This document shows positions 10,521-39,261 of a stretch of 64,000 nucleotides of DNA, one piece after another; positions within the stretch are counted from its first letter, which is position 1, and each line of letters starts with the position of its first letter. This DNA comes from Chiloscyllium plagiosum (Eukaryota): assembly GCF_004010195.1 (NCBI RefSeq), contig NC_057755.1, positions 1,167,306 through 1,231,305 of the forward strand, written 5' to 3'. The notes beneath the pieces were generated by a model, which saw only the letters and a program-made list of their open reading frames with translations, was not told the origin of the DNA and made no database searches. Both the position numbers and the translations under genes were made by a program.

Positions 10521-10559
10521 AATAAATCTTCCAGCTCAGCGAGTAAACCTACATCCAGA

Positions 10560-15860: not shown

Positions 15861-18800
15861 TGAAGGCCTTGTATGTGATCAAAGATGAAAGTGGAATTAG
15901 TAGAAAAAGACATCCTCACCCAGCCATTGGCAAAGCCTCAGCAGCAGCATTTCACCTCAATAACCATGCACTCCTCTGTGTGAGTATGGATTGTCCAGTG
16001 TGCACTGACAAGAACACAGTAGCAGCTTCCTGCAGCATCTGGGTGGGGTCTCACAGGTGTTCCTAGTGAGCCAACATGTCCACATCTCCTCTGAATATAA
16101 CTCCAGCATCCATGTAGAAGGCTCTCAGGTTGTCAGAAACCCCCAGGCTTTAGGCAACTCGAGGAGAATTAGAGTTACCAACATCCTTGAAGGAAAGAGA
16201 TCAGCACCACTTCAGCTGACAACTCAGAGGCACAACATCGGAACAAGCAGTTGTTTAAAAACTTTCCCATGAAGTTTTGAGATTTCACATGAGTATAGTT
16301 TACAATTAGATGTCAGCTTGCTGTGTTAGGGTTTTCATTAATTCGGAGGGTACATGAGAAAAGGACAACCTTCAATTTTGCACCCTGCTGGGTCTTGAAG
16401 AGCTCACTGTGTCTTGAAAACAGTAAAATGAGAATAAAGGTGCTGAATGATATCAAAAAATTCTGCTTACTATGTTTCATTAGTGATGGCTCCAAGAGAT
16501 AGTAAAGACATTCAAAGAACAACACCAGGGCACCAGGTGGGAAATATATTGAATGGATGTGAGAGTCTTCCTGAGTTGAAATGTGCCTGTATTACTGAAG
16601 CTCAAGCCTCCCTCACAGACATCTGGCATTGCATTTTCTGTGGTCCCTGGGACTCTTTAATATGTAGTCTCTGGTTAATATTGACTCAAGCTCTTGATTG
16701 TTCAGTAAAGGATGGAACTCAGTTTTACTCACTGTTCCAAACCTTCTCTCAATATCGCTTCAGATTACAAAGAATACAGCACACCACCAGGACACAGGAC
16801 TTTTGTGTCCCTCCTCCACATGACTTCCACACAGATGCACATTGACCCATGCCCCCTTCAGTCATTACAGCTTGTTTACAGTTATTCTTTGATGCATCTA
16901 TGGCGTTTATTGCACATTCTAATTGTCCTTGTGTACATACTCCTGAGCTTGGCTGGATGCTGTCCATCTGGCGTAAGCACATTTGTAGACAGCTCGGTGC
17001 TGGGGAAAAAAATAAGCACTACCGCAGTTAGGCGGTAGCGTGGGGGTTAATAAAAAATGAACATTTTGTTAAAAAAAACCAGGACATGCAGTGGAGATCC
17101 CCAGTGGAGGGTTCTCTACGTGGGAGTCCTCCCCCTTTCTCTCGGGGATCTGGGGTAGAGGGTGCTGCACGCAGCAGCCCCCTGCAACCACAGATAGTGG
17201 TGGTTCATGGACTCCCAGCCTAACTGCTTGTTTTGTGGTGCTATGGAGTCTGTGGACCATATATATTGGGTATGGGCGTTTGCACTCCGTTTTTGATTTT
17301 CTCAAAAACCTCTCCCTCTGCTTTTAATTGCACATCAGTCCCACGCTCCTGAGCTTTGGGCACCTGGTGCGGAGGAGGGGTTCGGAAGACCTCCCCGTGG
17401 GTCTGCTCCTGGGCCTGGTCAAACTGGCTATAAACAGGTCCAGGCAGCGGGCCGTGGAGGGGGTCGTTGGGGCCGATTGCCTGCCCCTCTTCCACTGTTA
17501 ATTTAGAGCCCGGGTGTCTCTGGAGAAGGAGCACACGATGTCCATTAACACGCTGGAGTTGTTCAGGGAGAGGTGGGCGCCACAGGGAGTGGAGTGCATT
17601 ATTTCCCCGTCCAACTCTATTTTGATTTAATCCCTTCCCTACCCTTCACTGTTTGATCACACAACATTGCTCTTTGATGTGAAGGGCACTGCTTGTCACT
17701 GGCCACTCGAGTGTTTCCTTTTTGTCCTGGTGGTGGAAACTGAACAAAGATTCGTGCACTTTGTGTCTTTCACTGTGTCTCACACTTGCACACAGACAAC
17801 ATGGGTGCTGGGGAAAAAATAAGCACTATCGCAGTTAGGTGGAAGTGTGAGAGTTTTTAAAAAAAACGGCAAATAAAAACAAAAAAAATACAGCAAGTGC
17901 AGTGGAGATCCCCAGTGGAGGGCTGTCTATGCGGGGGTCCTCCCCCTTTCTCTCGGGGATCTGGGGTAGAGGATGCTGCACGCAGCGGTCCCCTGCAACT
18001 GCTTGTTCTGTGGTGCTGTGGAGTCCGTGGACCATGTATATATTGGGTGTGAGCCTTTGCACTTCATTTTTGATTTTATCAAAAACCTCCTCCTCTACTA
18101 TTGGTTGCACTTTAGTCCCACGCTCCTGATCTTCAGGCATCCAGTACGGAGAAGGGAGGGTAGGTCTGAAGACCTCCTAGTGGGTCTGCTCCTGGGCCTG
18201 GCCAAACTGCCATAAACAGGTCCAGACAGCGGGCCATGGAGGGGGTCATTAGGGCCGACTGTTTGCCCCTTTTCCGCGGTTATGTTAGAGCCTGGGTGTC
18301 TCTGGAAAATGAGCATGCAGTATCCACCGACACCCTGGAGTTGTTCAGAGAGACGTGGACGCCACAAGGAATGGAGTGTATTATTTCCCCCTCCAAATCT
18401 ATTTTGATTTAATCCCTGCCCTCCCCTTCACTGTCTGCTCATACAGCATTGCCCTTTGATGTGAAGGGCAATGCTTGTCACTGGCAACTCGAGTGTTTCT
18501 TTTCTTCCTGGTGGTGGAGATTTGAATAAAGATTCGTGCACCTTGTGTCTTTCACTGTGTCTCACACCTGCACACACACAATATGGGTGCTGGGGAAAAA
18601 ATAAGCACTACCACAGTTAGGCGCCAGTGTGGGGGTTAAGGAAAAAAATAAACAAGAGTGTTAGAAAACAAATAACCAGGAAATGCAGTGGAGATCCACA
18701 GTGGAGGGCTCTCTACGCGGGAGTCCTCCCCCTTTCTCTCAGGGATCTGGAGTGGAGGGTGCTGTTTGTTCTGTGGTGCTGTAGAGTCTGTGGACCATGT

Positions 18801-21744
18801 ATTTATTAGGTGTGGGCGTTTGCACTCCCTTTTTGATTTTCTCAAAAACCTCCTCCTTTGCTTTAGGTTGCACTTCAGTCCCACGCTCCTAATATTCGGG
18901 TACCCGGTACAGAGAAGGGAGGGCGGGTCTGAAGACCCCCTCGTGGGTCTGCTCCTGGGTTTGGCCATAAACAGGTTAAGGCAGCGGGCCGTGGAAGGGG
19001 TCATTAGGTCCCACTGCCTGCCCTCTTCCATGGTTACGTTAGAGCCTGGGTTTCTCTGGAAAAGGATCACACAGTGTCCACCAACACCCTGGAGTTATTC
19101 AGGGAGAGGTGGGCGCCGCAGGGAGTGGAGTGCATTACTTCCCCCTCCAAATCTATTTTAATTTAGTCCCTGCCCTCCACTTCACTGTTTGATCACACAG
19201 CATTGCCCTTTGATGTGAAGGGCATTGCTTGCCACTGGCCACTCAGGTGTTTCCTTTCTTCCTGGTGGTGGAAATTTGAAGAAAGATTCGTGTGCCTTGT
19301 GTCTTTCACTGTGCCTCACACCCACACTCATACAGCATGGGTGCTGGGGAAAAAGTAAGCACTACCGCAGGTAGGTGGTAGTGTGGGGGTGGGAAAACAA
19401 AGAGGAGAAAAGTGTCAGACACCTTGAAAAAAATAATAAACAGGAGGGTCAGGGGTTCTGCTCACTCTGAGAGCTGGCTCTGAGGGAGCTGGATACTAAA
19501 AAAAAGAAAATAACCAGGAACTGCAGTGGAGATCCCCAATGGAGTGCACTCTACCCAGGAGTCCTCCCCCTTTTGCTTGGGGATCTGGGTTGAAGGGTGC
19601 AGCACACAGCGTTTCCCTGAAATCGCAGATTGCAGTGGTTCATGGACTCCCAGACCAACTGCATGTTCTGTGGTGCTGTGGATTCCGTGAACCATGTATA
19701 TATTGGGTGTGAGCGCTTGCACTCCCTTTTTGATTTCCTTAAAAACCTGCTCCTCTGTCTTTGGTTGCACTTCCGTCCCATGCTCCTGATCTTTGGGCAA
19801 CTGCTGGGGAGGGAGGTCAGATGACCTCCTCGTGAGTCTGCTCCTGTGCCTGGCCAAACACTTGTCTGTGCTGTGGACCGTGGAAGGGGTCATTATGGCC
19901 GACTACCTGCCCCACTTCCATGGTTACGTTCAAGCCTGGGTATCTCTAGAAAAGGAGCATGCAATGTCCACCAACACCCTTGAGCTGTTCAGGGAGAGGT
20001 GGGAAACACAGGGAGTGGAGTGTATCATTTCCTCATCCTACTCTATTTCAATTTAATCTCTGTCCTCCCCTTCACTGTCTGATCACGCAGCATTGTCCTT
20101 TGATGTGAAGAGTACTGCTTGTCACTGGCCACTTGGGTGTTTCTTTTCTTCCTGATGGTGGAAATTGAATAAAGATTTGTACACCTTGTGATTTTCACTG
20201 TGTCTCACACCTGCACACACAAAATGAATGCTGGGGAAAAATAGATTACCTGAGGTTCTGTTCACTCTGACAGCTGGCTCTGAAAAAAGAAATAAACCGA
20301 TGTGTCAGAGACTCCAAATAAAACAGGAGGGGCAGAAAAAAAACAGGAAATGCAATGGAGAGCCGTCTAAGTGGGAGTACTCCCCCTTTCTCTCGGGGAT
20401 TTGGGGTAGAGGGTGCTGCATGCAGCAGTCCCCTGCAACTGCAGATTGTGGTGGTTCACTGACAACCAGCTCAACTGCTTGTTCTGTGGTGCTGTGGATT
20501 CGTGGACCATGCATATATTGGGTGTGAGCACTGACAGTCCGTTTTTGATTTCCTTAAAAACCTGTTGCGCTATCTTTGGTTGCACTTCAGTCCCACGCAC
20601 CTGATCTTTGGGCTCCCGATGGGGAGAGGGGTGGGTAGATCAGAGAACCTCCTCGTGGACTTGCTCTAGGGCCTGGCCATAAACAGGTCCAGGCAGTGGA
20701 TCATTAGAGCCGAATGCCTGCCCCTCTTCTGCAGGTATGTCATAGCCCAGGTGTCCCTGGAGAAGGAGCACGCGGTGTCCACCAACACGCTCGGGATTTT
20801 AAGGGGAAGGTGGGCACCGCAGGGTGTGGAGTGCATTGTTTCTCCCTCCAACGCTATTTTGATTTGATCATTGCCTTCCTCTTCACTGCTTGATCACAAC
20901 ACATGCCCTCTCAGAAGGGCACAGCTTGTCACTGGCACTCAGGTACTCCCTTTCTTCCTGGTGATGGAAACTGAATAAAGATTTGTACACCTGTTGTCTT
21001 TCACTGTGTCTCACACCTGCACATACACAACATGGGTGCGAGGAATGTTAAAAAAAAGAAAAACAAAAAATACAGAAAATGTAGTCGAGGGCTCTCTACA
21101 CAGGAGCTCCCCCACCTCCTTCTCTAGGGGATCTGGAGTGAAGCGGCGGTTTACAGACTGCCAGCCCAACTGCTTGTCCTGTGGTGCTGTGGAATCCATG
21201 GACTATGGATGTATTGGGTGTGGGCACTTGAACTCTGTTTTTGATTTTCTTAATGACCTTCTTCTCTGTTTTTGGTTACACTTCAGGCAACTGGTCATAA
21301 ACAGGATAGGGGTCATTAGAGCCGATTGTCTGCCCCTCTTCTGTAGGTATGTCAAAGCCCGGGTGTCCCTGGAGAAGGAGCACGCGGTGTCCACCAACAC
21401 CCTCACGATTTTCAGGGAAAGTTGGGCACTGCAGGGATTGGAGTGCATTATTTCCCCGTCCAACTCTACTTTGACTTGATCCCTGCCCTCCCCATCACTG
21501 TTCAATCACGCAGCATTGCCCTTTGATGAGAAGGACACTGTTTGTCACTGACCACTTGGGTGTTTCCTTTCTTCCTGATGGTGGAAATTGAATAAAGATT
21601 TTGTATCTCACTGTGTCTTACAACTGCACACAAACAACATGGATGCTGGGGAAAATATAAACACTACCGCAGTTGGGCGGTAGGTGGGGCATGAAAAATA
21701 CCAGGAAATGCAGTGGAGATCCCAAACGGAGGTCTCTCTACACA

Positions 21745-22382
21745 GTACAAGGTCAATTCTTTGAATGGCACGACTATCTTGTTTTGAAAGATTGGAGCGA
21801 CTGGGCTTGTATACCCTTGAGTTTAGAAGACGGTGAGGGGAGCTGATTGAGACGTATACAATCATTAAAGGATTGGACACTCTGGAGGCAGGAAACATGT
21901 TTCCGCTGATGGGTGAGTCCTGAACCAGAGGACACAGCTTGAAAATAAGGGGTGGTCCATTTACGACAGAGATGAGGAGAAACTTCTTCACCCTGAGAGT
22001 GGTGGGTGTGTGATGTTCAGATGTTCTGAAGATGTTCTGAAGAACAAAAAAAAGCAGATGTCCTCCCCCCCCCCAAAAAAAATGCAAATAACCAACAAAT
22101 GGAATGGAGATACCCAATGGAAGGCTCTCTACGAGGGGGTCCTCACCCTCTCTCTCAGCGGGTATGTGGAGTGCTCTGCTTCAGAAGGCAGTGGAGACCC
22201 AGTCTCTGGATTCATTTAAGAAACTGTTTGATAGAGCTCTCAAGGATAGTGGAATCAAGGGTTATGGAGATAAGGCAGGAACAGGATACTGATTGAGGAT
22301 GATCAGCCATGATCATAATGAATGGTGGTGCAGGCTCGAAGGGCAGAATGGCCTACTCCTGCACCTATTGTCTATTGTCTAT
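21745..22382 (+). mobile_element. CR1 3' end inserted into an array unit
   Basis: Encodes LERLGLYTLEFRR..TRGHSLKIRG..FFTLRVV and ends in a CTATTGT repeat tail. The array unit resumes with gtcctccc afterwards. Same family as 50388-50820. Confidence 0.85.
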
Positions 22383-25300
22383 AGTCCTCCCACTTTCGCT
22401 CAGGGATCTCGGGTGGTGGGTGCTGCGTGCAGCAGTCCCCTGCAATTTCCGAGGTGACCTTAAAATAAGAAAAAAAGAAAACAAAAGAAATAACCAGGAG
22501 CGTTGGCCTGGTCAAACTGGCCATAAACAGGTCCAGACAGCAAGCTATGGAGGGGGTCGTTCGTGCCGATTGCCTGCCCCTCTTCCATGGTTATGTTCGA
22601 GCCCGGGTGTCTCTGGAGAAAGCTTGCAGTGTCCTTCAACACCTTTGAGCTGGTCTCGGAGAGGTGGGCACCACACGGAGTAGAGTGTATTATTTCCCTC
22701 TCCAACTCTATTTTGATTTAATCACTGCCTCCACTTCACTGTTTGACCATGCAGCTTTGCCCTCTAAGAATGGCACTGCTTGTCACTGGCCCTTTGGGTG
22801 CTTCCTTTCTTCCTGGTACATCTCTATGACTCTATAAATTGAATAAAGATTTGTACACCATGTGTCTTTCACTGTATCTCACACCTGCACACTCACAACA
22901 TTGGTGCTGGGGAAAACATAAGCACTATTGCAGTTAGGTGGTAGTGTGGGGATAAGGAAAAAAATAAACTGGAGTGTCAGATGTTCTGAAGAACAAAAAA
23001 AAAGCAGATGTCCTCCCCCCCAAAAAAAATACAAATAACCAACAAATGGAATGGAGATACCCAATGGAAGGCTCTCTACGAGGGGATCCTCACCCTCTCT
23101 CTCAGCGATCTGTGGCGGAGGCTGCCTCCCACAGTGGTCCCCTGCAACTGCAAATTGTGGTGGTTCGTGGACCACTCCCAGCCCAACAGCTTGTTCTGTG
23201 TTGCTGTGGAATCTGTGGACCATCTATATATTGGGCACTTGCACCCACGTTTTGATTTTCTTAAAAAGCTTCTTCGCTGTTTTTGTTTGCACTTCTGTTT
23301 CACAGTCCTGATCTTTGGGCACCCAGAGCAAACGGGGGCAGGTCAGGTCAGGGGACCACCATGTGGGTCTTCTCCTGAGCTTGGCCAAACTGGTCATGAA
23401 CAGGTCCAGGCAGTGGACCATGGAAGGTGTCGTTAGGGCTGATTGCCTTCCCCTCTTCCAGGTTCGAGCCCTGGTATCTCCGGAGGAGCATGCAGTGTCC
23501 AGTAATGCCCTTGAACTGTTCAGGGAGAGGTTGGTACCACTCAGTGCATTATTTTCCCCCAACTCTATCTTGATTTAATCACTGCTATCCACTTCACTGT
23601 TTGATCATGCAGCATTGTCCTCTAAGAAGGGCACTGCTTGTCATTGGCCACTTGGGTGTTTCCTTTTTTCTGGAGATGAAAATTGAATAAAACATTTGTA
23701 GACCCTATGTCTTTCACTATCTCTCACATCTGAACACGCAGATCATGACTGCTGTGGAAAAAGGAAAAAAAAACCCAAGAGGGTTAGAGGTTGAGAAAAA
23801 AAAAAGAAAAAGAAAAAATAAAATAAACAGGAGGTGTCCTCCCCTTCACCATTGGATCATGCAGCATTGGCCTCTGAGAAGGAAACTGCTTGTCACCGGC
23901 CACTTGGGAGTTTCATTTCTTCCTGGAGGTGGAAATTGAATAAATATTTGTACACCTTGTGTCTTTCACTGTGTCTCACACCTGTACACACAGAACATGG
24001 TTACTGGGGAAAATATAAGCACTATCACAGTTAGGTGGTAGAGTGGGGATAAGGAAATAAATAAAGCTGGGGATCTTAAGAACATAAAAAAAAACAGGAG
24101 ATGCCCTCGCTCCCCCCCAAAAAAACAGGAAATGGAGTGGAGATCCCCAAAGGAGAGCTCTCTACATGGGTGGTGGTGTCCTTCTCCTTTCTCTCAGGGA
24201 TCTAGGGTGGAATGTGCTGCACGCAGCAGTCCCCTACAACCACAGATTGCGGTGGTTCACAGACTCCCAGACCAACTGCTTGTTCTGTCGTGATGCGGAG
24301 TCCATGGACCGTGTATATATTGGGTGCACTTGCACTCTCTTTTTGATTTTCTTAAATACCTTCTTCTCTGCTTTTGGTTGCACTTCAATCCCACACTCCT
24401 TATCTTCGGGCATCCGGTGCAAAGAAGGGGGGAGGGGCTGGTCAGAGGACCTCCTCATGGGTTGGCTCCTGGGCCTGGCCAAACTGGCCATAAGCAGGTT
24501 CACGCTGCAGTCCGTGGAGGAAGCCTTATGGCCAATTGCTTGCCTCTCTTCTGAGGTTATGTTCCAGCCGGGGTGTCTCTGGAGAAGGAACATATGGTGT
24601 TCACAAACACCCTCGTGATTTTCAGGGAAAGGTGGGCAGGTATTACAGTGCATTATTTCCCACTCCAACGCTGCTTTGACTTAATCCCTGCCCTTCTCTT
24701 CACTGTTCAATCACGCAGCATTGCCCTGTTTCACACCTGCACACACACACGGGTGCTGGGGAAAATATGAGCACTATCACAGTTAGGTGATGCTGTGAGG
24801 ATAAGGAAACAAATAAATAAACAGGAGTGTCAGGTTTTCTGAAGAACAGAAAAAGTAAACAGGAGATGATCTCCCACTCAAAAAAAGGAGAAAATAACCA
24901 GGAAATGGAGTGGAGATCCTCAATGGAGGCCTGTCCACATGGGGTGATCCCCCTTTTACTTGGGTACCTGGGGTGGAGGGTGCTTCCCACAGTGGTCCCT
25001 TGCAACCGCGGATTACAGTGGTTCATGGACTCCCAGACCAACTCCCTTTTTGATTTCCTCAAAAACCTTCTCCTCTCTTTTTGTTGCACTCCAGTCCCAT
25101 GCTTCTACTCTTTGGGCACCCAGTACAATGGAGGCAGGGTAGATCAGGGGACCGGGTATCTCCTTCTGGGTTTGGCCAACCTGGTCATAAACAGGTTCAG
25201 GCAGCGGGCCATGGAAGGTGTTGTTGTGGCTGACTGCCTGCCCTTATTCTGTGGTTACATGAGTGTCCCTGGAAGAGTAGCACACAGTGTCCACCAACAC

Positions 25301-26534
25301 CTTTGAGATTTTCAGGGAAAGGTGGGCACACAGGGAATGGAGTGCATTATTTCCCCTTTCAACTCTATTTTAATTTATTCACTGCCCTCCCCATCACTGT
25401 TTGAGCATGAAACACCCAAGTGACCAGTGGAGGGCACTCTACGTGGTGGTCCTCTCTCTTTCACTGGGGGAACTGGCATGAAATGTGCCACATGCAGTGA
25501 CCCCCTGCAACTGCAGATTGTGGTGGTTCACAGACTCCAAGCCCAACTGCTTGTTCTGGGGTGCAGTGGAGTCCGTGGACCATGTACATATTGGATGTGG
25601 GTGCTTGCAATCTCTTATTCATTTTCTTAAATATCTTCTTCTCCGTTTTTGGTTGCACTTCAGTCCCACACTCCTAATCTTTGGGCATGCAGTGCAAAGG
25701 AAGATCAGAGGACCTCCTCATGGGTCTGCTACTGGGCCTGGCCAAACTGGCCATAAACAGGTCCAGGCGGCAGGCCGTAGTTGGGGTTATTATGGTCAAT
25801 TGCCTGCCCCTCTTCTGCAGCTACATCCGTGCCCGGGTGTTTGTGGAGAAGGAGCACGCGGTGTCTAGCAATACCCCTGAGCTGCTCAGGGAGAAGTGGA
25901 CAATGCAGGGAGTAGACTGCATTATTGCCCCCTCCAACTCTATTTTGATTTAATCACTGCCATCCACTTCACTGTTTGATCATGCAGCATTGCCCTCTAA
26001 GAAAGGCACTGCTTGTCACTAGCCACTTGGTTGCTTCTGTTCTTCCTGGTGGTGGAAATTGAATAAAGATTTGTTCGCCTCATGATTTTCACTGGTGAAA
26101 ATATGAGCACTATCGCAATTAGGTTGTGCTGTGGGGATAAGGAAACAAATAAATAAACAGGAGTGTCAGGTGTTCTGAAGAACAGAAAAAAATGAACAGG
26201 AGATGCCCTCCCACTCAAAAATAAAGAAAATAACCAGGAAATGGAGTGGAGATCCCCAATGGAGGCCTGTCAACATGAGGGTGCTTCCCCTTTCAGGTAT
26301 CTGTGGTGGAGGGTGCTTCCCACAGTGGTCCCCTGCAACCATGGACTGTGGTGGGTCATGGACTCCCAGACCAACTCACGTTTTGATTTTCTTATAAACC
26401 TTCTTCTCCGATTTTGTTTGCACTTCAGTCCCAAGCTCCTGATCTTTGGGCACGCGGTGTGAAAGTGGGGAGGGCAGGTCAGAAGACTTCCTCGTGGGCC
26501 TGACCAAACTAGCCTTAAATAGGTCCAGGCAGCT

Positions 26535-26965
26535 AGGCAAAAGTGAGGACTGCAGATGCTGGAAACCAAAGTTTAGATCAGAGTGGTGCTGGGAAAGCAC
26601 AGCAGGTCAGGCAGCATCCGAGGAGCAAGAAAATCGATGTTTTGGGCAAAAGCCCTTCATTAGGAATAGAAGCAGGAAGCCTCGAGGGTGGAGAGATAAA
26701 GGGGGGTGGGTGACCTGTCCTACCTGGCAATCGCCCTTCCCACCTATCCGCTCCACCCCACACCCATTCACCTATTCTACTCCTTGTTACCTTCCCCCAC
26801 CCTCCTCCCTGACCTATCACCTCCATCCCCATTCACCTATTGTAGTCTTTGTGACCTTGCCCCACCCTCCTCTCTGACCTACCACCTCCATCCCCACCCC
26901 CATTCACCTATTGTAGTCTTTGCTACCTTCTCCCCAGACTCCACCTCCATTTGTCTCTACAACCA
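26535..26965. mobile_element. PLE-terminal-repeat-derived insertion in an array unit (copy 1)
   Basis: gtgaggactgcagatgctgga..gcagcatccgaggagca followed by a pyrimidine-rich tract. It interrupts the unit at aggtccaggcag, which is repeated on the far side. A related insertion sits at the same unit position at ~27998-28340. Confidence 0.65.
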
Positions 26966-27997
26966 AAGGTGCAGACAGTGGGCCATGGAGGAGGTCATTA
27001 TGGCTGATTGCCTGCCCCTCTTCCGACCTTACGTTCGAGCCTGGGTGTCTCTGGAGGTGGAGCACGCGGTGGCCACCAACATCCTTCAGCTGTTTAGGGA
27101 GAGGTGGACAACATAGGGAGTGGAGTGCATTATTTCCCCCTCCAACACTATTTTGATTTAATCACTGACATCTACTTCACTGTTTGACCATGTGGCATTA
27201 CCCTCTAAGAAGGGCTTGTCATTGGACACTTGGGTGTTTCCTTTCTTCCTGGAGGTGAAAATTGATTAAATGATTTGTAGACTTTGTGTCTTTCACTGTA
27301 TCTCACTCTTGCACACACACAACATAGGTGCTGGGGCAAAAGAAAAAAAGACGGTCAGAGGTTAGAAAAAAAAGGAAAAGTAGAAAAATTAACATAAACA
27401 GGAGATGCCCTCCCCTTCACAGTTTGATCAGAAAACATTGCCCTTGAAGAAGGGTGCTGCTTGTTATTGGCCACTCGGGCATTTCCTTTCTTCTTGGTGG
27501 TGGAAAATGAATACAAATTTCTACACCTTGTGTCTTTCACTGTGTTTAACACCTGCACACACACAATATTGATGTTGGGGAAAATATCAACACTGTTGCA
27601 AACAGGCAGCAGTGTCTGTGTTTAAAAAAATGAAAATGGAAAATAAACAGGTAATGCAGTGGAGTTCCCCAATGGAGGGCTCTCTACATGGGAGTCCTCC
27701 ACCTTTGTCTAGGGGATCTGGCATGGAATGTGCTGCATGCAGTGGTCCCTGCAACTGCAGATTGTAGTGGTTCACAGACTCCCAGCCAACTGCTTGCTCT
27801 GTGGTGCTGAGGAGTCCGTGGACCATGTATATATTGGGCGTGCGCTTGCAATCTCTTCTTGATTTTCTCAAAAACATTCTTCTGTTTTTGGTTGCACTTC
27901 AGTCCCACGCTCCTGATCTTTGAGGACACAGTTTGAAGGGGGAGGGCAGATCAGAGAACTTCTTCATGGGCCTGGCCAAAAACAGATCCAGGCAGCG

Positions 27998-28340
27998 AGG
28001 CAAGTGAGGACTGCAGATGCTGGAAACCAGAGTTTAGATCAGAGTGGTGCTGGAAAAGCACAGCAGGTCAGGCAGCACCTGAGGAGCAGGAAAATTGACA
28101 TTTCGGGGAAAAGCCCTTTATTAGGAATACAGGCAGGAAACCTCCAGGGTGGAGATATATGGGGGGATGGGATTACCTGTCCTACCTGCCAGTCTCCCTT
28201 CCCACCTATCTGCTCCACCCTCTCTTCTGACCTATCACCTCCATCCCCACACCCATTCACCTATTGTACTATTTGCTACCTTCTCCCCAGCTCCCCCCCA
28301 ACCCATGTTTCTCCCCTCCCCCATTTATCTCTCCACCCCA
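27998..28340. mobile_element. PLE-terminal-repeat-derived insertion in an array unit (copy 2)
   Basis: Same sequence layout and same insertion point as 26535-26965. Confidence 0.65.
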
Positions 28341-31300
28341 AGGTCCAGGCAGAGGGCCTTGGAGGAGGTCCTTATGGCCGATTGCTTGTCCCTCTTCCGA
28401 TGTTACGTTCGAGCCCGGGTGTGTCTGGAGATGGAGCACACGGTGGCCACCAACACCCTTCAGCTGTTCAGGGAGAAGTGGACAACGCAGGGAGTGGAGT
28501 GCATTATTTCCCCCATCCAACGTTATTTTGATTTAATCACTGCCATCCACTTCGCTGTTTGATCATGCAGCATTGCCATCTAAGAAGGGCACTGCTCGTC
28601 ACTGACTACTTGGGTATTTCCTTTCTTCCTGGAGCTGAAAATTGAATTAATGATTTGTAGCTTTTGTTCCCTTCACTGTGTCTCAGACCCACCCACACAC
28701 ATCATGGGTGCTGGGGACAGAGAAAAAAAAACCAAGAGGGTCAGAGATTACAAAAAAAAGAAAATAAACAAAAGATGCCTCCCTTTCATTGTTTGACCAT
28801 GTGGCATTGCCCTCTGGGAAGGGTACTGCTTGTCATTGACCACTTGGATACTTCCTTTCTTCCTGCTGGTGGAAATTGAATAAAGATTTGTACACCTCAT
28901 GGCGTTCACTGTGTGTCACACCTGCATACACACACGGGTGCTCGGGAAAATATGAGCACTATCGCAGTTAGGTGGTGCTGTGGGGATAAGGAAACAAATA
29001 AACAAACAGGAGTGTCAGGTGTTCTGAAGAACAGAAAAAAATAAATGGGAGATGCCCTCCCACTCAAAAAAAAAACAAAATAACCAGTAAATGGTGTGGA
29101 GATCCCCAATAGAGGCTTTTCTACACAGGGTTGCTCCCCCTTTCACTCAGGTATCTGGGGTGGAGGGTGCTTCCTGCAGTGGTCTCCTGCAACCGCAGAT
29201 TGCAGTGGTTCATGGACTCCCAGATCAACTACCGTTTTGATTTTCTTAAAAACCTTCTTCTCTGTTTTTCGTTGTACTACAGTCCCACACTCCTGATCTT
29301 TAGGCACCCTGAGCAAAGGGTGCAGGGCCGGTCAGAGGACCTCCTCGTGGATCTGTTCCTGGGCTTAGCCAAATAGGACATAAGCAGGCCCAGGCAGTGG
29401 GCCGTGGAGGGGGTCATTAGGTTCAATTGCTTTCCCCTCTTCCTGGTTTGAACACCCTTGAGAGCTGTTCAGGGAGGGGTGGGCACTACAGGGAGTGGAG
29501 TGCATTACCCTCCCCCCCCCCAATTCTATTTCGATTTAATCACTGCCATCCATTTCACTGCTTGATCATGCAGCATTGCCCTCTAAGAAGGGCACCGCTT
29601 GTCATTGGCCACTTGGGTGTTTCCTTTCTTCCTGGAGGTGAAAATCGATTAAATGATTTGTAGACATTGTGTTTTTCACTGTTTCTCACACCTGCACACA
29701 CACATGAGTTCTGGGGAAAAAGAAAAAAAAAACAAAAGGGTCAGAGGTTAGAAAAAAAAGAAAAAGTTGATAAAAATGACATAAACAGGAGATGCCCTCT
29801 CTTTCACTGTTTGAACACAGAGCATTGCCCTCTGAGAAGGTCACTGCTTGTCACTGGCCACTTGGGTATTTCGTTTCTTCCTGGTGGTGGAAATTAAATA
29901 ATAATTTGTTCTCTTTATGTCTTTCACTGGGTCTCACACCTGCACACATACAACATGGGTGCTGGTGAAAATATAAGCACTATCGCAGTTCGGTGGTAGA
30001 GTGGGAATAAGGAAAAAAAATAAGTAAACAGCAGTGTCAGGTGTTCTGAAGAACAGTCAAAAAATAAACAGGGATGCCCTCCCCTCCCACCCTTACAAAA
30101 AAAGAAAATAATGATGAAGTGGAGATCACCAATGGAGGCCTCTCTATGCGGGGGTCCTCCTTCTTTCTCTTGGAGATCTGGGATGGAGGATGCTTTCCGC
30201 GGCAGTGTCCTGCAACCACAGATTGCTGTGGTTCCCGGACTCCCAGCCCAACTGCTTGTGCTGTGGTCCTGTGGAGTCTGCAGACCATGTATATATTGGG
30301 TGTGGGTGCTTGCACTCCCTTTTAGATTTTCTGAAAAACCTTCTTCTTTGTTTTTGGTTGCACGTCAGTCCCATGCTCCTGATCTTTGGGCACCTGGAGT
30401 GAAGTGGGAAGGGCAGGCCAGAGGATGTCCTTCTGGATGTGCTCCTGAGCTTTGCCAAAATAGACATAAACAGATCCAGGCCATGGAGGGGGTTGTTAGA
30501 ACTGATTGCCTTCCCCTCTTCCCGGTTCCAGTCCGTGTGTCTCTGGAGGAGCACGTGGTATCCACCAGCACCCTTGAGCTGTTCACAGAGAGGTGGGCAC
30601 CACAGGGTGTGGAGTGCATTATTTCCCCCTCCAAATCTATTTTGATTTAATCCCTGCCCACCTCTTCACTGTTTGATCACGAAGCATGCTGTCTGAGAAG
30701 GGCACTGCTTGTCACTGGCCACTTGGGTGTTTCCTTTCTTACTGGTGATGGAAATTGAATAAAGATTTGCACACCCTGTGTCTTTCACTGTCTCACACCT
30801 ACACACACACAACATAGGTGTGGGGAAAATATAAGCACTACCGCAGCAGGTAGTAGTGTAGGGGTATAAGAAAAAATATCAATACGAGTCTCAGTGGTTC
30901 TGTTCACTCTAAGAGCTGGCTCTGAGGGAGCTGGATCAGTATCAAGGACTTTCTAAGAGAACAAAAACAGGAAATGCAGTGGAGATCCCAGTGGAGGGTT
31001 CTCTACGCTGGAGTCCTCCACCCTTTCGCTCGGGGATCTGGTGTGGAATGTGCTGCACACAGCCGTCCCCTGCCACCGCAGATTCCGATGGTTCACGGAC
31101 TCACAGCCGAACTGCTTGTTCTGTGGCGCTGTGGAGTCTGTGTACCATGTATATATTGGATGTGGGCGTTTGCACTCCCTTTTTGATATTCTCAAAACCC
31201 TTCTCCTCTCTTTTTGTTGCACTTTAGTCCATGCTTCTACTCTTTGGGCACCCGGTACTATGGAGGGAGGGTAGATCAGAGGACCGGGTGTCTCCTCCTA

Positions 31301-32249
31301 GGTTTGGCCAAACTGGCCATAAACAGGTTCAGGCAGCGGGTCATGGAGGGTGTCGTTGTGGCTGACTGCCTGCCCCTATTTCACAGTTATATGAGAGCCT
31401 GGGTGTCCCTGCAGAATTAGCACGCAGTTTCCACCAACACCTTTGAGATTTTCAGGGAAAGTTGGGCACGCAGGGAATGGAGTGCATTATTTCCCCTTCC
31501 AACTCTACTTTCATTTAATCACTGCCCTCTCCTTCACTGTTTGAGCATGAAACATTGTCTTCTGAGAAGGGTACTGCTTGTCACTGGTCACTTGGGTGTT
31601 TCCTTTCTTCCTGGTGGTGGAAGTTGAATAAGGATTTTACAGCTTGTGTCTTTCACCGTGTCTCACACCTGCACGCACACATGGGTGCTGGGGAAAATAT
31701 AAGCACTATCGCAGTTAGGCGCAAGTGTGGGGTTAAAAAAAAAATATAACTTGGTGGTTTAGAGTCTCTGCAGTTCAGAATCTCTGCAGTTTAGAGCACT
31801 GACTGTGCTGGCTGGTGCTACAGTCCCACGTGCTCCTGCTGCCTCTGAGGAGCAAAAGAGGAGTTTCTTTGTCTCTTCCCCTTTTGTTTCGGGAAGATTT
31901 TTTTTTGTTTGGGTTTCCGAATTGTTTGCTTGTGTTTATTTTTTCCGTATTTGGAGCTACACAGGCAGCCACCACTGGCCCCATGGGTGTTCCCTTTCTT
32001 CCTGGTTGTGGAAATTGAATAAAGATTTGCACAACTTGTGTCTTTCACTGTCTCACACTGCACACACACATGGGTGCTGGGGAAACTATAAGCACTACCG
32101 CAGTTAGACCATATTGTGGGGGTAAAGAAAACGGCGACAAAAAAAAAAACAGGTGAAAAACAGAAAATGGCCTGGGGTGTTTTATTTCTCCTGTTGATTC
32201 TAAGTTTGATTTAATCCCTGCCCTCTCCTTCACCTTTTTGATCTCTCAG

Positions 32250-32788
32250 TGTGGGATATAAATGAATTAATGTTATTTCTGCAAGTATTAATTCTGATAC
32301 AGAATGGGAATGAGAAAATACATATTCAGCAAAAAGAAAGCATGAGACGTGAATACAGAACAATGGTGGATATATGGGCAAACAGGAAAGCATCTGTTTC
32401 CCCCTTACACGGGGACACAGGAACAAACCCTAATCAAAGAGGTCAAAGTGGCCTCTGGATGGAAATAGATGCTGATAGAAGAAAAGATATGCCTAATCAA
32501 TAATCTATAATAGACTGACGTCAAACACCCTTATGGGAGTCAGAGATAAGAGTTTGTCACGGACAAAACAGGATAAACAGAAGTTGTGGGATAAGTCTTA
32601 AGGAAATGAGTAACGTAAGCGAAGCAGGGAACAAACAATGGAATAAGGAAAAATATGGGGATTCAAACTGTATAAATTTCGAGAGTTTGTTGGATTTGGT
32701 GTGCATTTTGTCATTACCTTACCTGGTAATGAGACAGGGCACCCACCTATAGGTGTATAAATAAAAAAGAAGCTGTTATTCAGATATT
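32250..32788 (+). mobile_element. LTR (5' portion, runs into an N-gap) inserted in an array unit
   Basis: Begins TGTGGGA directly after CTCAG (32245-32249). Has a TATAAATAAA motif near 32755. 32607-32788 recurs at 38101-38278. Confidence 0.65.
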
Positions 32789-32877
32789 NNNNNNNNNNNN
32801 NNNNNNNNNNNNNNNNNNNNNNNNNNNNNNNNNNNNNNNNNNNNNNNNNNNNNNNNNNNNNNNNNNNNNNNNNNNNN
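32789..32877. other. Assembly gap (N-run); other gaps at 37404-37423 and 48772-48819
   Basis: Runs of n in the sequence. Confidence 1.
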
Positions 32878-33295
32878 GATGCCTTTTAAATGTTGTAATT
32901 GTACCAGCCTCCACCACTTCTTCTGGCAGCTCATTCCACACACACACACACACACACCATCCTCTGCATAAAAAAGTTGCCCCTTAGGTCCCTTTTAAAT
33001 CTTTCCCCCTCACCCAAAACCTAAGCCATCTACTTCTGGACTCCCGCAGCCCAGGGAAAAGACCTTGTCTATTTATCCTATCCATTCCCCTCATGATTTT
33101 GTAAACATCTATAAAGTCACCCCTCAGCCTCCAATGCCCCGAGAGAAAAATAGCCCCAATCAATTCAGCCTCTCCCTGTAGCTCAATCCCTCCAACCTTG
33201 GCAGCGTCTTGTAAATCTTTTCTGAACCCTTTCAAGTTTCACAACATCCGTCCTATAGCAGAAAGCCCAGAATTGCATACAGTTTTCCAACAGTG
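32878..33295 (-). mobile_element. CR1 3' fragment
   Basis: RLRGDFIDVYKIMRGMDRINRQGLFP. Confidence 0.85.
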
Positions 33296-33371
33296 ATGTC
33301 ACTTATGTCCTCTCGGAAGAGAATTTTTAAAATATATTCACAACCATCATATTACTACAAGGAAATCAAGT

Positions 33372-33578
33372 TCGAGAGTGTAGTGCTGGAAAAGCGCAGC
33401 CGGTCAGGCAGCATCCGAGGACCAGGAGAATCGACGTTTCGGGCATAAGGATTCCTGATCAAGGGCTTCTGCCCGAAACGTTGATTCTCCTGCTCCTCAG
33501 ATGCTGCCTGACCTGCTGCGCTTTTCCAGCACTACACTCTCGACTCTGATCTCCAGCATCTGCAGTCCTCACTTTCTC
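33372..33578. mobile_element. ~200-bp palindromic element with a hammerhead-like core and a 15-bp TSD
   Basis: 33372-33543 is a near-perfect inverted repeat. Core CTGATCA-agggc-ttct-gccc-GAAAC at 33455-33479. Flanks are caaggaaatcaagtt (33358-33372) and caaggaagccaagtt (33579-33593). Confidence 0.75.
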
Positions 33579-34899
33579 CAAGGAAGCCAAGTTAGTTTGG
33601 CATGACTTTCCCATCGCAATTTGTTTTGGCTGTCCTTTATCAATCTATGCTTTTTCTGTTTTAAAAAGAAGTTTGTGGGATGTGATTGTTGCTAGCACGT
33701 TTGCTTACCATCCCTCATGGCCTTTGGACCAAGTAACTGACTACAGGCTGGAAGGCAGTTGAGAGTCAACCACATTGTAGTAGGTCTGGAGTCATATGGT
33801 GTGTACACACATGCGTGCAGGGTTAATATCCCTCCCTAAATAGGACAGTTTCACAAAGTCAGTAATGGTTGGAGAAACACAACAGTTCTGGCAGCATCTA
33901 TGAAGAGACGACAGTGTTAATGTTTTTGAGTCCAGTGGCCCTTCAAAACTTGGCTGGATTCAAAACATTAACTGTTTTCTCTCCACAGATGCTGCAATGT
34001 TGCCTTTCGTTTCTGATCTCCAACATCTCCCAATCATTGTTTTAGTCAATAATGGTTTCCTGGTTGCCAGGACTGAGGCAAACTTTTACTTCCAGATCTT
34101 TTTATTCGTTGAACATAAATTCTACTCGCTGCCATGATGGGATTTGAATGTTTGTCCTCAGAAAACCGAGATCTCTGGGTTACTCAACCAGTATCACTAG
34201 GCCACAGTCTTCCCTTCGGTGACAATTTTCTCCTGAATATTTCCCTCTATTCATTCGTGGGATGTGGCACCTTGTCTCCCAGAAAAACCAAGTGCCATTT
34301 CAGAGGGCAGTTAAGAGTCAACCACATTACTGTGGATCATTACTGTGGATTACTGAGGGACACATTCACCAAACCGGGGAAGGACTAAAGATTCCCTTCC
34401 TTAAAAAAGTTATTAGTGAACAAGATAGGTACCTATGACAATTGATAAGATCACCAAAGCAGCGATAAGCTTTATATTCTAGATATATTAATTGATTTCA
34501 AATTACATTGGGGCCAAAGCAGCAACAATTTGAAACTCCAGATGTTAAATCTAGTAACAATGCTAAAATGCCACCAACTCCCTACAATCTCTAAGTATCC
34601 CAACACTGACTGGCCTGAAGTTGCCAGTTGTATCCCTTTTCCATTTATTATTTACTATTTAATTCAGCCCATTGAGTCGACTCTGCCATTTATTCAGATC
34701 ACAATTGTTCTGGTAAACATCAACTCCATTTTCCTTACGTTTCCCCCTAATCCTCAATTCCCTTTCTGATTAAAAAAAATCTATCTTAGCTTTGAATGCA
34801 CTTAACAACCCAAGCTCAACAGCCCTCTGCAGTAACAAGTTCCACAGATTTACTGGCCTCAGGGGAAGTTCCTATCTATCCTAAACAATCCCTTATTTG

Positions 34900-35210
34900 G
34901 AGATTAGATTCGATTCCCTACTGTATGAAAACAGGCCCTTCGGCCCAACAAATTCACACTGACCCTCCGAAGAGTAACCCACCCAGATCCATTCCCCTAC
35001 AAAACACTATGGGTAATTTAGCATGGCCAATTCACCTGACCTGCACATCTTTGGACTGTGGGAGGAAACCGGAGCACCCGGAGGAAACCCACGCAGACAC
35101 CGGGGAGAATGTGCAAACTCCACACAGGCAGTCACCCGAGGTGGGAATCGAACCCAGCTCCCTGGCACAATGAAGCAGCGATGCTAACCACTGAGCCACC
35201 ATGCTGCCCT
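34900..35210 (-). mobile_element. HE1 (V-SINE), full length
   Basis: tRNA head with A/B boxes, V-domain, and a CR1-like tail ending in AATCT repeats. Confidence 0.9.
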
Positions 35211-35489
35211 CTGGTTATTCCCTCTGGTCCTAGACTCACCCACAGAGGTAAACTTTTCCACATTTAGCCAGTCAAGTCTCCTCAGAATCTTGTATGTGAC
35301 AATAAAGGTTACCTCTGGTTCTTCTAACTTCCACTAAGACAGGCCCAACCTATCCACTTTTCCTCCTAAGACATTCTTTCCATATCTGATATCATCCTGG
35401 TCAATCTTCTCTGGACTGCCTCCAATGCCAGTATATCTTTCCTTCAGTAAAGGGCCAAACTGGTGCCTTACATAGGTTCACTGCTTCTT

Positions 35490-36420
35490 TTTTTATATTA
35501 ATTTTTCTCCAAAAGTGACAGCAAAACAAGATGCAATCACAAGCAATAAACAAAATCTCAACCACCCTCCCTACGGCACAAACATCCCCCAAAAATATAA
35601 AGAAAAAACGACAAGCAACCATAATAAATATATCCACATACAAAGCACACAACATAATAATTTAAATCCGTAGTAAGATAACTGTATTAATAATACAAAA
35701 AGAAAACAAAACAAGAAAAAAAATCCCCACCACAGAAGACACATCAGTCTGGAACTGTTAAAAAGACAATACCATCAGCATATGAAATAAAAGGGTTCCA
35801 AATTTTCGTAAATTTGTTAGAGGAGCCAGATAAGGATAGTCTAATCTTTTCTAATTTAAGAAAGTATAAAACATCTCCAACCCAGTGTATATATGTAGGC
35901 GGAATTAGGGATTTCCATTATAACAAAATCTTCCGGCCAATAGATTAGTGAATGCTTTCATGTTTTTATTTTAAGAGGAAGGAAGATTTAAAGAGGGTGA
36001 CACCCCAAAAGAGCAGTATTAGCATTAGCAGTAAGATTTTTGCCAGATACCTTATATAAGGTGTCAAAGATATTAGTCCAATATCTACTTAAAGAAGGGC
36101 AAAGACAGAAGATGTGCATACAATTTGCTGGGGTCTGTTGAAAATGATCACAGTATGGAGAGACTTTGAGCTTTGGTGTACTGGGCGTGGTGTAGAATCT
36201 TGCATTGAATAAAACAATGTTTTGCACAGATAGCAATTCTGTGCATCCTTTGTAAAACCTCATCCCACACATCCAGAATTACCTCTTCAAGATCTGCCTC
36301 CCAGATAGCTTTAATAGAATCAAGAGAATCTGAGCATACTTTATGGATGTTTGAATAAATAGCCCCCTTTAATGAAGAAAGCAGTTCCAGAAAGATGTCA
36401 AAACCAGATCCATTAGGAAG
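35490..36420 (-). mobile_element. L1-clade LINE, ORF2 C-terminal fragment and 3'UTR
   Basis: IKAIWEADL..WDEVLQR..IQCKILH..CDHF..HIFCLCPSLSRYW, the L1 cysteine-rich C-terminus, followed by a T-rich UTR and an A-rich end. Confidence 0.75.
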
Positions 36421-36639
36421 CGCAGGGAAACCCTGACATAAACTGATGGACAAAACTGTGAACTTGGTGGTATCTAAAGAATGGATCTGGGATAAGGTGG
36501 GGGGGGAGGGGAAATGAGGAAACTGGTGAAAAGATTCTGGGTAATCCAAGATGGAGGACAGGAAACTGAGCAGTTTTAAAAGGGAGAAGAGCAGACAAAG
36601 GAAGCACATGGTGAGGTCAGTGCAGGAGAGAGAGAGAAC

Positions 36640-36726
36640 CTGAGGAAGGGCTGATGCCCGAAACGTCGATTCTCCTGCTGCTTGGATGCTGCCTGACCTG
36701 CTGCGCTTTTCCAGCAACACACTTTC
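36640..36726 (+). mobile_element. ~85-bp hammerhead-containing insertion with a 14-bp TSD
   Basis: CTGAGGA-agggc-tgat-gccc-GAAAC-GTC at 36640-36667. Direct repeat agagagagaacctg at 36629-36642 and 36727-36740. Confidence 0.7.
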
Positions 36727-36729
36727 AGA

Positions 36730-37750
36730 GAGAGAACCTGCACAGTTACTGCCTTTGCTGTTTTGAATTCATATATCGCTGGACATCGGAGTGTGCCTGG
36801 GAAAATTAACAAACAGTGGAATTCAAAACTAATCTTGGAGGAACTGGTTTGGGTGACGTTCACAGCACAGAATCAGATAAATTAATCGTTGTTTTAAGTG
36901 TGTCCAACAGAAAGGCTGCAGTAGTGAGTAGAGTGGGTTCTTTCTTGATTATATGTTTTTGGAGATATGTCTCTTGATTAAACTTAAAATATAAGCCATA
37001 ACTATTAATTTAATCTGGGGCAGTGTTTTGTAGGGGAATAAGACGGTGTTGTTTTCTGGGTCTGTAGATTGTGAAGGAGCAAAAAATGGCCTTTAGTACA
37101 GTGATATGTACTTCTTGTCAGATGTGGGAGTTTAAAGAGAGTTTAAGGGTTACTGTGGATTATATCTGCCATAAATGCTGTTGGATGAGAATCTTATCAG
37201 ATCAAATGGATTGGCTGGAGAGACAGATAGCAGCGATGAGGAATTTGCAACAGCAACAGTATGTGATGGATGGCAGTTATGGGAGGGGGGCAAGTCTCAG
37301 ATACAGTCACATAGATGGGTTAACTCCAGAAAGGGTAAGAGAGGTAGGCACCAAGGGCAGGAGTCTTTTGTGGATATACCCATTTCAAACAGGTATGCTG
37401 TTTNNNNNNNNNNNNNNNNNNNNCCACATTGGAACCAACGATATAGGAAGGGAAAAGGTTGAGATACTGAAGGGAGATTACAGGGACCTCGGCAGAAATT
37501 TAAAAAGGAGGTCCTCGAGATTAATATCTGGATTACTCCCTGTGCTATGAGCTAGTGAGGGCAAGAATAGGAGGATAGAGCAGATGAATGCATGGCTGAG
37601 GAGCTGGTGTATGGGAGAAGGATTCACATTTTTGGATAATTGGAAGCTGTTTTGAGGTAGTAATGACCTGTACAAGAAGGACAGATTGCACCTAAATTGG
37701 AAGGGGACTAATATACCGGCAGGGAAATTTGCTCGAGCTGCTTGGGAAAT
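36730..37750 (+). mobile_element. CR1 5'UTR + ORF1 fragment
   Basis: VICTSCQMWE..YICHKC, HIGTNDIG, ISGLLPV and LHLNW. Confidence 0.85.
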
Positions 37751-37859
37751 GCGCAAAAGTGAGGACAGCAGATTCTGGAGATCAGAGCCTAGATTAGAGT
37801 AGTGCTGGAAAAGCACAGCAGGTCAGGCAGCATCTGAGAAGCAGGAAAATTGACATTTC

Positions 37860-38090
37860 GTGCTCAGTGGTTAGCACAGCTGCGTCACGGTGCCAGGGAC
37901 CCGGGTTCAATTCCCGCCTCGGGCAACTCTCTGTGTGGAGTTTGCACATTCTCCCGTGTCTGCGTGGGTTTCCTCCGGGTGCTCCGGTTTCCTCCCACAG
38001 TCCAAAGATGTGCAGGGTCAGGTGAATTGGCCGTGCTAAATTGCCCATAGTGTTAGGTGCATTAGTCAGGGGTTAATATAGGGGGGTGGC
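37860..38090 (+). mobile_element. HE1 (V-SINE), truncated
   Basis: GCTCAGTGGTTAGCAC..GGGTTCAATTCC followed by the V-domain. Confidence 0.88.
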
Positions 38091-38100
38091 TTTCTCTTTG

Positions 38101-38323
38101 TGAGTGACGTAAGCGAAGCAGGGAACAGACAATGGAATAAGGAAAAATATGGGGATTCAAACTGTATAAATTTCGAGAGTTTGTTGGATTTGGTGTGCAT
38201 TTTGTCATTACCTTACCTGGTAATGAGACAGGGCACCCACCTATAGGTGTATAAATAAATGGCGGATTCAGATATTTGTCTCGGACTGAAATTATTAAAG
38301 TGAGTGAGCTTTTGTTTCTCACA
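38101..38323 (+). mobile_element. LTR 3' portion (same LTR as 32250)
   Basis: Ends TCTCACA, followed by CTCAG (38324-38328), a 5-bp TSD matching 32245-32249. Confidence 0.7.
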
Positions 38324-38825
38324 CTCAGCAATTGTCCTTTGTTGAGCAGGGCATTGCTTGCCACTGACCACTCAGGTGTTTCCTTTCTTCCTGGTTGTGG
38401 AATATAAATAAATATCTACGTATTTGTTTTTTTCGGAGTGTCAGGGGCTCTGCTTGCTCTGAGAGCTGGCTCTGAGGGAGCTGAATCGTTGTCAAGGACT
38501 CTCCACTGGTAAATAAAAGGTGCCTTGGTGACAGGGAAAATAAAACAGGAAACGGCATGGAGTGTTTTATTTCCCCCTCTGATTCTAATTTAGATTTAAT
38601 CCCTACTCTCTCCAATCATGTAAGCATTGCACTTTGTCGAGAAGGGCTCTGCATGTCACTGGCCACTTGGGTGTTTCCTTTCCTTCTGGTGATGGAACAT
38701 GAATAAAGATTTCTGCACTCGTCATTTCTTCACTGTGTTCTACACATGCACAAACGCACACGACATGGGTGCTTGGGTGAAATAAACACTACCGCTATTT
38801 GGTAGTTGCGTAGGGTTTTTTATGA
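38324..38825 (+). repeat. Continuation of the Tx1-like array (two short units and an LTR-like spacer at 38437-38540)
   Basis: The 3'UTR resumes at the point interrupted at 32249. The last unit ends cactaccgctatttggtagttg. Confidence 0.75.
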
Positions 38826-39149
38826 AAAGTAATCTGGAAATGGCGAGTTGCCTTTGAGTGGCCGGAAGCTGGGAGGGGCAGGTCATTTCCTGGTTTACCA
38901 GGGGTGTCTGAGTAATAAGCACTGTTTTACAAAAACAATCCCATCAACTAAAGAGTGTGCATTTAGGTTTCTTTTTTCCTCTTCGGTAAATTACAATAGG
39001 ATTTGGGGTTCGTCTGCATTTCCCTTTGAATTGGTTGTACACTGGGGTTTTGGGATTTGGCTTTGCTACCCCTTTCCCCTGTAAATTGTGGGTTATTGTA
39101 AACTGCTGCTTATTATTCATTGTTGACTGTTTCTACTTTTGTACAATAT

Positions 39150-39261
39150 AATTAAAAACATAACCAGGAGATGAGAATCTCAGTTCAGGAGACTGATTCC
39201 AATCTGGCTGGCACAAGTAAATAAAGGGTGATGGGATACTGGCCTCTACACAGTTATTTCA
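39150..39261 (+). mobile_element. Putative 3' end of the LTR-like host or target of the array
   Basis: aaacataaccaggag..gtaaataaaagggtgatgggatactggcctct..ttatttCA shares the ATAACCAGG linker and the gtaaataaaagg motif with 38437-38540. Confidence 0.45.

Follow-up and report, generated by a model that had tools for sequence, protein, structure and literature searches.

A stack of Tx1-type LINE 3′ ends at one motif of an LTR-like repeat in a cartilaginous fish, plausibly seeded by aimed insertion and multiplied by early local copying

We report that a 64,000-nt stretch of Chiloscyllium plagiosum DNA (the window) carries a stack of Tx1-type LINE 3′ pieces, joined by linkers at one short motif that is native to an LTR-like repeat. 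The stack is old and dead, and its units are mosaic and were copied early. We lean, with a little better than even confidence, toward a composite origin in which insertion aimed at the motif was combined with serial transduction and with early local duplication by unequal exchange: a few aimed insertions would have seeded the stack, and local copying would have multiplied its units.

All units lie on the + strand, as judged across the 64-kb window both by a search with a real unit, which returned 38 pieces between 16987 and 38820, all +, and by mapping with a profile of 781 columns built from 11 long units. After later insertions are discounted, the array is one structure (Table 1). The motif AAATAA(A/C)CAGG (at most one mismatch) occurs 25 times on the + strand, every time within 17073-39158 and nowhere else on that strand, and twice on the − strand of the window; in 300 block shuffles of the array it averaged 0.73 occurrences and never exceeded 3. 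The first-pass annotation, made from the letters of the window, had described about 20 same-orientation Tx1-like 3′ ends stacked at one motif, with the motif ahead of nearly every unit, and on both points it is borne out. In a hand census of the 26 piece starts inside the array, an A-tract and a recognisable or decayed motif precede every start except 25423. Fifteen of these starts fall at one point of ORF2 and one more at a degenerate form of it, four at profile column 569, two at column 517 and one at column 346, the rest being one start without the motif and two foreign pieces. The related terminus that had been placed at about 39150-39261 was likewise found, with motif, AATAAA and TTTCA end all present. 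No LTR 5′ half (CCAAT plus motif site) survives in the window, and Tandem Repeats Finder did not detect the array.

Table 1. Features of the stack, in window coordinates
Feature	Position	Strand	Basis or remarks
Whole stack: Tx1-type 3′ pieces, linkers, right-hand LTR-like half, later insertions inside	16987..39261	+	Unit query and profile
62-nt 3′-end remnant	16987..17048	+	Array's left boundary lost, with any 5′ half of an LTR
Six long units	17074..21690	+	Starts 17074, 17885, 18671, 19509, 20338, ~21061; C-terminal ~185 codons of ORF2 and ~220-nt 3′ UTR; common 5′ break, degenerate in the last
LTR-like spacer, 51 nt past the motif, then own A-tract and motif	19444..19496	+	High-copy in relatives
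Two broken long-unit starts (21696, 22087), then unit 22489	21696..22951	+	Profile; the two starts are interrupted by pieces of another LINE (21762-22005, 22160-22377); unit 22489 has a different 5′ break (profile column 346)
Higher-order block region, order repeated ~4 times	22960..30060	+	Order: 15-nt LTR stub, 15-nt UTR stub, long unit to ~column 750, 14-nt LTR stub, short UTR-only unit; long units 23034, 24120, 24893, 25423, 26229, 27642, 29079; short units 23822, 27393, 28763, 29780
Foreign repeat piece within unit 26229	26537..26966	.	~12-nt duplicated site; presumably Penelope-like
Second copy of this insertion, at the corresponding site of unit 27642	28000..28340	.	300/334 aligned bases identical
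Two long units (30098, 30962) around a ~68-nt LTR-like spacer	30098..31735	+	Spacer at 30886-30953; its end is A-rich
Decayed motif, 240 nt of no match, last 150 nt of Tx1 3′ UTR	31740..32121	+	31740-31972: no match at a useful E-value among fetched proteins
Short unit, third 5′ break (column 517)	32155..38417	+	Split at column ~593 by a 6-kb insertion
Later insertion, TG...CA ends, 5-bp duplication CTCAG	32250..38323	.	Nested repeats and two N gaps inside; the divided unit resumes at the next profile column
Longest LTR-like spacer, then A-tract and motif	38434..38536	+	
Short unit, column-517 break	38540..38815	+	Most diverged unit, 79.6% to array majority
Decayed motif, then unrelated T-rich piece with A-tract end	38826..39157	+	Probably a further LINE's 3′ end that entered at this same site; unmatched in the window, and without a match at a useful E-value among fetched proteins
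LTR-like 3′ half, from a distinct though related subfamily, with motif, AATAAA and TTTCA end	39158..39261	+	Likely the host of the stack

Judged by the likeness of its ORF2 C-terminus, the element is a Tx1-type LINE. The units hold the end of a LINE ORF2, interrupted by stops and frameshifts, followed by the 3′ UTR, and the array pieces carry neither endonuclease (EN) nor reverse transcriptase (RT). Pfam gave a weak zf-RVT match that does not reach the curated cut-off (E 7e-4). Built from 13 in-frame pieces of the window, a profile matched 283 proteins and aligned to the C-termini of full-length EN+RT proteins, those named YTX2 or 'transposon TX1 149 kDa' among them (P0169, P0170, P0200 and the P0056 cluster), which upholds the Tx1-like identity proposed at first reading; an earlier homologue search for longer proteins had given one match. 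The best full-length match among the fetched proteins was a sea-turtle Tx1-type ORF2 (P0199, CAM4605007.1, 1306 aa, E 5e-33) of an unnamed family, with EN and RT domains of its own; it is a distant relative of the array element and not its source. Close partial matches came from gene models of whale shark, horn shark and sawfish, in keeping with a likely cartilaginous-fish host. A pattern search of metagenome contigs for the Tx1 ORF2 piece gave 611 matches, none of them confirmed, and one for the spacer gave none, as did a search of viral contigs with the 3′ UTR pattern.

The units are 5′-truncated copies with poly(A) ends, seen in the window as A-tracts. We also compared four of 24 listed public runs, from three related organisms, with 17700-20400 at 80% likeness, taking the top 24 of ~5976 loose ends and the top 15 of 1795 joints. 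Behind the 3′ end, 564 reads of run X21 (relative A) and 64 contigs of run X1 continue into A-rich sequence. All four folded copies have a terminal hairpin (z −2.1, −3.2, −3.0 and −1.2). The element's internal AATAAA lies ~105 nt ahead of its end, and the end signal therefore looks weak.

The units were read at first as ~20 separate insertions, and this does not hold. The 15 starts at one 5′ break inside ORF2 also share non-element letters at the junction, a coincidence to which a uniform model gives a chance of ~1e-24. Reads of relative A (469, X21) run upstream into ORF2 past the break (at 17902, agreement 0.9), so dispersed copies extend beyond it and the break is local, not the end of a family. 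A SINE-like family with a fixed 5′ end was rejected on these same reads; the depth beside the start at 19526 (19, on one strand) also counts against dispersed fixed-start copies. Further sharing appears within the array: units 24893, 26229 and 29079 have a 63-nt deletion in common, 26229 and 27642 carry one foreign insertion at one site, ~1-kb blocks recur, and units 23034, 26229, 27642 and 29079 agree in UTR alleles, in a short 3′ end and in the linker behind it. Descent of the copies from one local insertion, the outcome that the first-pass annotation had named as fatal to its own account, is with 15 of 26 starts at one break largely what the array displays.

The time of the copying can be read from the same units. 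In the tree of the 15 long units, which is largely a star, 3 of 12 inner branches have support; identity shows no trend with distance along the array (rho 0.10, p 0.82), and at 36 of 37 mapped sites, with one further site left unmapped, the array majority and the family share their allele. Copying must therefore have been early. Identity of the units to the array majority is 79.6-91.5%. Block identities of 85-86% (aligned columns) are inflated by cheap gaps, an unrelated pair scoring the same. In relative A a 253-nt contig is identical to one unit, and in a contig of relative B 13 of 191 bases differ. Non-CpG derived alleles are shared 1.8-2.6 times as often as under a null that ignores site-rate variation, in five of five regions, the ratio falling somewhat from 2.6 at the 5′ end to 1.8 in the UTR. 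Unit 24893 is a mosaic: it has the deletion of 26229 and 29079 but shares 20 derived alleles with 30962.

These patterns bear on a different route to the same stack, in which the target is the same and the units are multiplied via RNA rather than by DNA exchange. Here a motif-primed cDNA would be completed by pairing with the next unit downstream or with the motif of a read-through RNA, so that each insertion would inherit its neighbour's 5′ break and whole blocks would be copied. The star-like tree and the agreement between array majority and family allele would fit such copying, as would mosaic units like 24893, the many different linkers and 3′ ends behind the same 5′ start, the 15-nt UTR stubs, implying source RNAs that ran on from a stacked unit into its neighbour, and the somewhat higher allele sharing at the 5′ end. 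That gradient from 5′ to 3′ is weak, however, given what its null ignores, and the ~1-kb blocks with identical linkers, together with the foreign insertion, are simply explained by unequal exchange. We regard growth by RNA-templated self-copying, in which each insertion would rebuild the target and create a poly(A) signal (A-tail plus TAAA), as possible, if rather unlikely, and we are equally tentative about its joint form, in which read-through RNAs tailed ~20 nt into the neighbour would re-enter the same motif with the neighbour's 5′ end. If true, a family feeding itself in this way would carry LTR promoter pieces between LTR subfamilies.

The motif itself is native to the LTR-like repeat, where it stands at a TATA-like position. 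In the reads of the relatives, the 51-nt spacer forms the central part of a high-copy repeat whose rightward continuation is found in 1126 raw reads (X21) and hundreds of contigs. Leftward of the spacer, at 19436, 174, 164 and 184 contigs (X1, X5 and X6) carry non-Tx1 sequence with no Tx1 tail and with a CCAAT word shortly ahead of the motif, and a second leftward variant is found in 116 and 95 contigs. Because the spacer runs leftward without Tx1 in relatives, empty sites exist and the motif belongs to the repeat. The search for empty sites that had been suggested at first reading thus found empty LTR copies with the motif in three relatives (164-184 contigs each). The repeat, present in the window as fragments, shows LTR hallmarks, namely CCAAT upstream in these empty sites and, at 39158-39261, the motif, AATAAA and TTTCA end. 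That the spacer might be part of the element's own 3′ end, a possibility also raised at first reading, was rejected: element reads end in poly(A), and the spacer occurs without Tx1 in the empty sites.

It is plausible that the motif also served as the insertion target. The first-pass annotation's placing of the motif in an LTR-like repeat has stood up, and several distinct 5′ junctions start directly after the motif. Four or five such junctions can be told apart; two of them could be deletions, and the left flank of the array is lost. Junctions between the element and the repeat are multi-copy in relatives: in relative B, Tx1 UTR, A-tail, motif and LTR are joined at a depth of 189, where single-copy-like records have ~7-25, and in relative C the Tx1 UTR meets an LTR piece at a depth of 448. 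Alternatively, the element may have no target preference, and one chance insertion at an A-rich LTR site may have been followed by satellite-like expansion, the other starts and the spacers being deletion products. The identity of 15 of the 26 starts would follow naturally, short matching words at the other starts would permit deletion, and among the top rows dispersed 3′ flanks have no LTR signature in raw reads, the 564 X21 loose ends behind the 3′ end showing the A-rich cell only (agreement 0.67). We nevertheless judge this account improbable: the motif is the starting point for pieces of two or more LTR-like variants and also for an unrelated element with a tail, units with the column-517 break form a more diverged variant, and the multi-copy Tx1-LTR junctions of relatives B and C speak against it as well.

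Short matching words are found at the starts in columns 517 and 569, either of which could have arisen from the long unit by deletion. None of the top 15 of 1795 joints is a Tx1-to-LTR joint supported by raw reads; tails of varying length and short overhangs could mask joints of this type there. A rough depth estimate that assumes a 3-5 Gb genome suggests ~10,000-16,000 3′ ends and 3,000-5,000 LTR pieces, and this roughly threefold excess of 3′ ends counts against family-wide targeting.

The spacers are probably 3′ transductions and not target duplications. Their positions had been annotated correctly at 19441, 22970, 24825, 26160, 29010, 30030, 30885 and 38437, and the piece annotated at 18655 (7 nt, at 18658) is too short to align. 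When compared with the longest spacer (38436-38536), 46 of 51 positions match at 19444, 82% match over ~68 nt at 30886, and 14-15 of 17 nt match at 22972, 24825, 26161, 29010 and 30033. An A-tract and another motif stand behind every spacer, the right-end LTR half (39158-39261) and the spacers belong to different subfamilies, and the order of the pieces cannot be nested, which together argue that the spacers are not the variable-length target duplications they were first taken for. Twenty-two of 24 spacers are short and end 12-28 nt past an AATAAA-like word made by the A-tail and the motif, in a loose test that also counts plain A-runs; 11 of the 24 have a strict AATAAA or ATTAAA at this distance. 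In the longest spacer the end comes 19 nt past its own AATAAA (38512), and two spacers (56 and 77 nt) fall outside the range. Many spacers are copies of each other, leaving ~11 independent types, eight of which fit (p ~0.01 under a crude uniform model), the 51-nt and 68-nt spacers not among them. Template jumping was rejected as the main source: the motif sits between the pieces. The true target duplication is likely the 11-14-nt motif, a length that fits the 10-20 bp usual for target duplications of APE LINEs in the available text of PMC6895275.

The full model of the first-pass annotation, with ~20 independent insertions in one LTR and spacers that are target duplications of 7-100 nt, is therefore largely refuted, and we consider it very improbable. 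It drew on the presence of the motif at nearly every junction and on spacers that always start at the same LTR position; a short spacer plus the motif amounts to 18-30 nt, near known duplication sizes, and the star-like tree is also in its favor. Independent 5′ truncations would not coincide as they do here, and since the spacers precede an A-tract and motif with no element 5′ end, the model would need insertions made of poly(A) only. The right-hand LTR half is of another subfamily, and the order of LTR stub, UTR stub, long unit, LTR stub and short unit cannot nest as duplications of the right neighbour.

In the composite origin that we favor, the element's endonuclease would nick at the TATA-like motif, and target-primed reverse transcription would leave the order motif, element, poly(A), motif, with the target rebuilt each time. 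Such insertions would be the source of at least four or five 5′ junctions, those at profile columns 1, 346, 517 and 569 and that of the foreign piece at 38826. Source copies in LTRs or in stacks would then be read through their weak end, giving 3′ transductions: the RNA would be cut and tailed 12-28 nt past the AATAAA of A-tail and motif, or after the LTR's own AATAAA, and the transduced products would land at the same target. Soon after, local copying of units and ~1-kb blocks, for which unequal exchange and conversion are the likeliest means, would have left 15 units with one 5′ break, and neutral decay would have brought them to 10-20% from the array majority. The second step resembles 3′ transduction by L1, for which the available text of PMC8232201 describes how transcription that runs over a weak end as far as the following poly(A) signal takes flanking sequence into the new copy. 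Unlike in L1, the signal here likely arises from the A-tail and the target, and the products would return serially to the same type of site.

A preference for LTRs is known from the same clade: the available text of Kojima 2015 (PMC4494074) describes the crocodilian families Tx1-8_Crp and Tx1-4_AMi as LTR-preferring and takes one repeat type in >20% of flanks as the criterion of target specificity. An LTR-targeting Tx1 family is not known to have been described in sharks, and none appeared among the titles and abstracts listed in searches of the open-access literature; the novelty suggested at first reading is overstated, given the crocodilian families. As far as that description allows the comparison, a preference for LTRs would be common to both; the host here is a cartilaginous fish and the site a TATA-like motif. 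The array is likely a further case, from a cartilaginous fish, of the targeting that has been described for crocodilian families. Other Tx1 families have other targets: in the available text of PMC4494074 and PMC1919474, Tx1L of Xenopus laevis inserts in the piggyBac-type Tx1D, Tx1-Mar in Mariner-N4_AMi, Keno in U2 and Kibi/Koshi in microsatellites. The element here belongs to their clade by ORF2 likeness and its array consists of dead 3′ pieces; a target inside another repeat would be common to this array and to the Tx1 families listed in those sources.

To the Tx1 LINEs that aim at mobile elements, the locus adds a candidate short site at the TATA-like motif of an LTR, and an element with this habit, if the reading is true, would either disable the LTR promoter or put it to its own use. 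The A-tailed spacers in series are a record of probable read-through RNAs. The locus also warns that stacked units should not be counted as independent insertions.

The first reading had overlooked the common 5′ ends and the A-tract behind every spacer. It had likewise passed over the nature of the gap at 32250-38323, which is a later insertion that divides one unit.

Each long unit of the array carries, inside ORF2 and near column 360 of the long-unit profile (for example at 17430-17440), a sequence nearly identical to the target motif, ATAAACAGG, and this near-motif directly adjoins the foreign insertion common to units 26229 and 27642. The units also share a predicted terminal stem-loop, a candidate signal by which the element's own reverse transcriptase (RT) would recognize its RNA. 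At one joint, 240 nt could represent either a further LTR piece or an internally deleted 5′ end of the element itself. Just outside the left edge of the array, the frame MHLWRLLHILIVLVYILLSLAGCCPS may be a first exon, judging from its sequence features, or may have arisen by chance.

Features within and around the array (window positions)
Feature	Position	Strand	Remarks
Short frame MHLWRLLHILIVLVYILLSLAGCCPS	16892-16975	+	Signal-peptide-like; followed by GTAAG donor-like word just 5′ of array
Terminal stem-loop	17017-17043 and equivalents in other units		Immediately 5′ of A-tail; by folding
240-nt sequence	31740-31972		Preceded by decayed motif; joined to Tx1 3′ UTR
Later inserted element	32250-38323		TG...CA ends; 5-bp duplication (CTCAG)
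Open frame	55481-56035	-	NLRC4_HD2 match, E 1e-6, below curated cut-off

The fetched proteins matched by the profile of the array's ORF2 end include the gene models P0044 (zinc finger protein, horn shark), P0050 (dynein heavy chain, sawfish), and P0054 (NHRF3, bowfin). The Tx1-type ORF2 pieces within these three are likely annotation run-ins.

The later element that splits one array unit is likely an LTR-type insertion from another family. Comparison within the window revealed 98.7% identity over 159 nt between 32607-32765 and 38101-38259, with an adjoining N gap, and this pair may reflect a recent duplication or an assembly artifact. The same insertion harbors, at 35480-36450 (-), a LINE 3′ end that reads as L1/Tx1-like and differs from that of the array; it had no useful match among the fetched proteins.

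Elsewhere in the window, the open frame matching NLRC4_HD2 likely represents an NLR immune-gene exon. A 707-nt inverted duplication (93%) lies at 7902-9642 inside RT sequence that we take to be Penelope-like, where a Pfam search of the 8377-9219 frame gave no match. Finally, within-window comparison identified an old segmental duplication (11841-14711 versus 53221-55210; three pieces, 70-74% identity), with one copy on each side of the array region.
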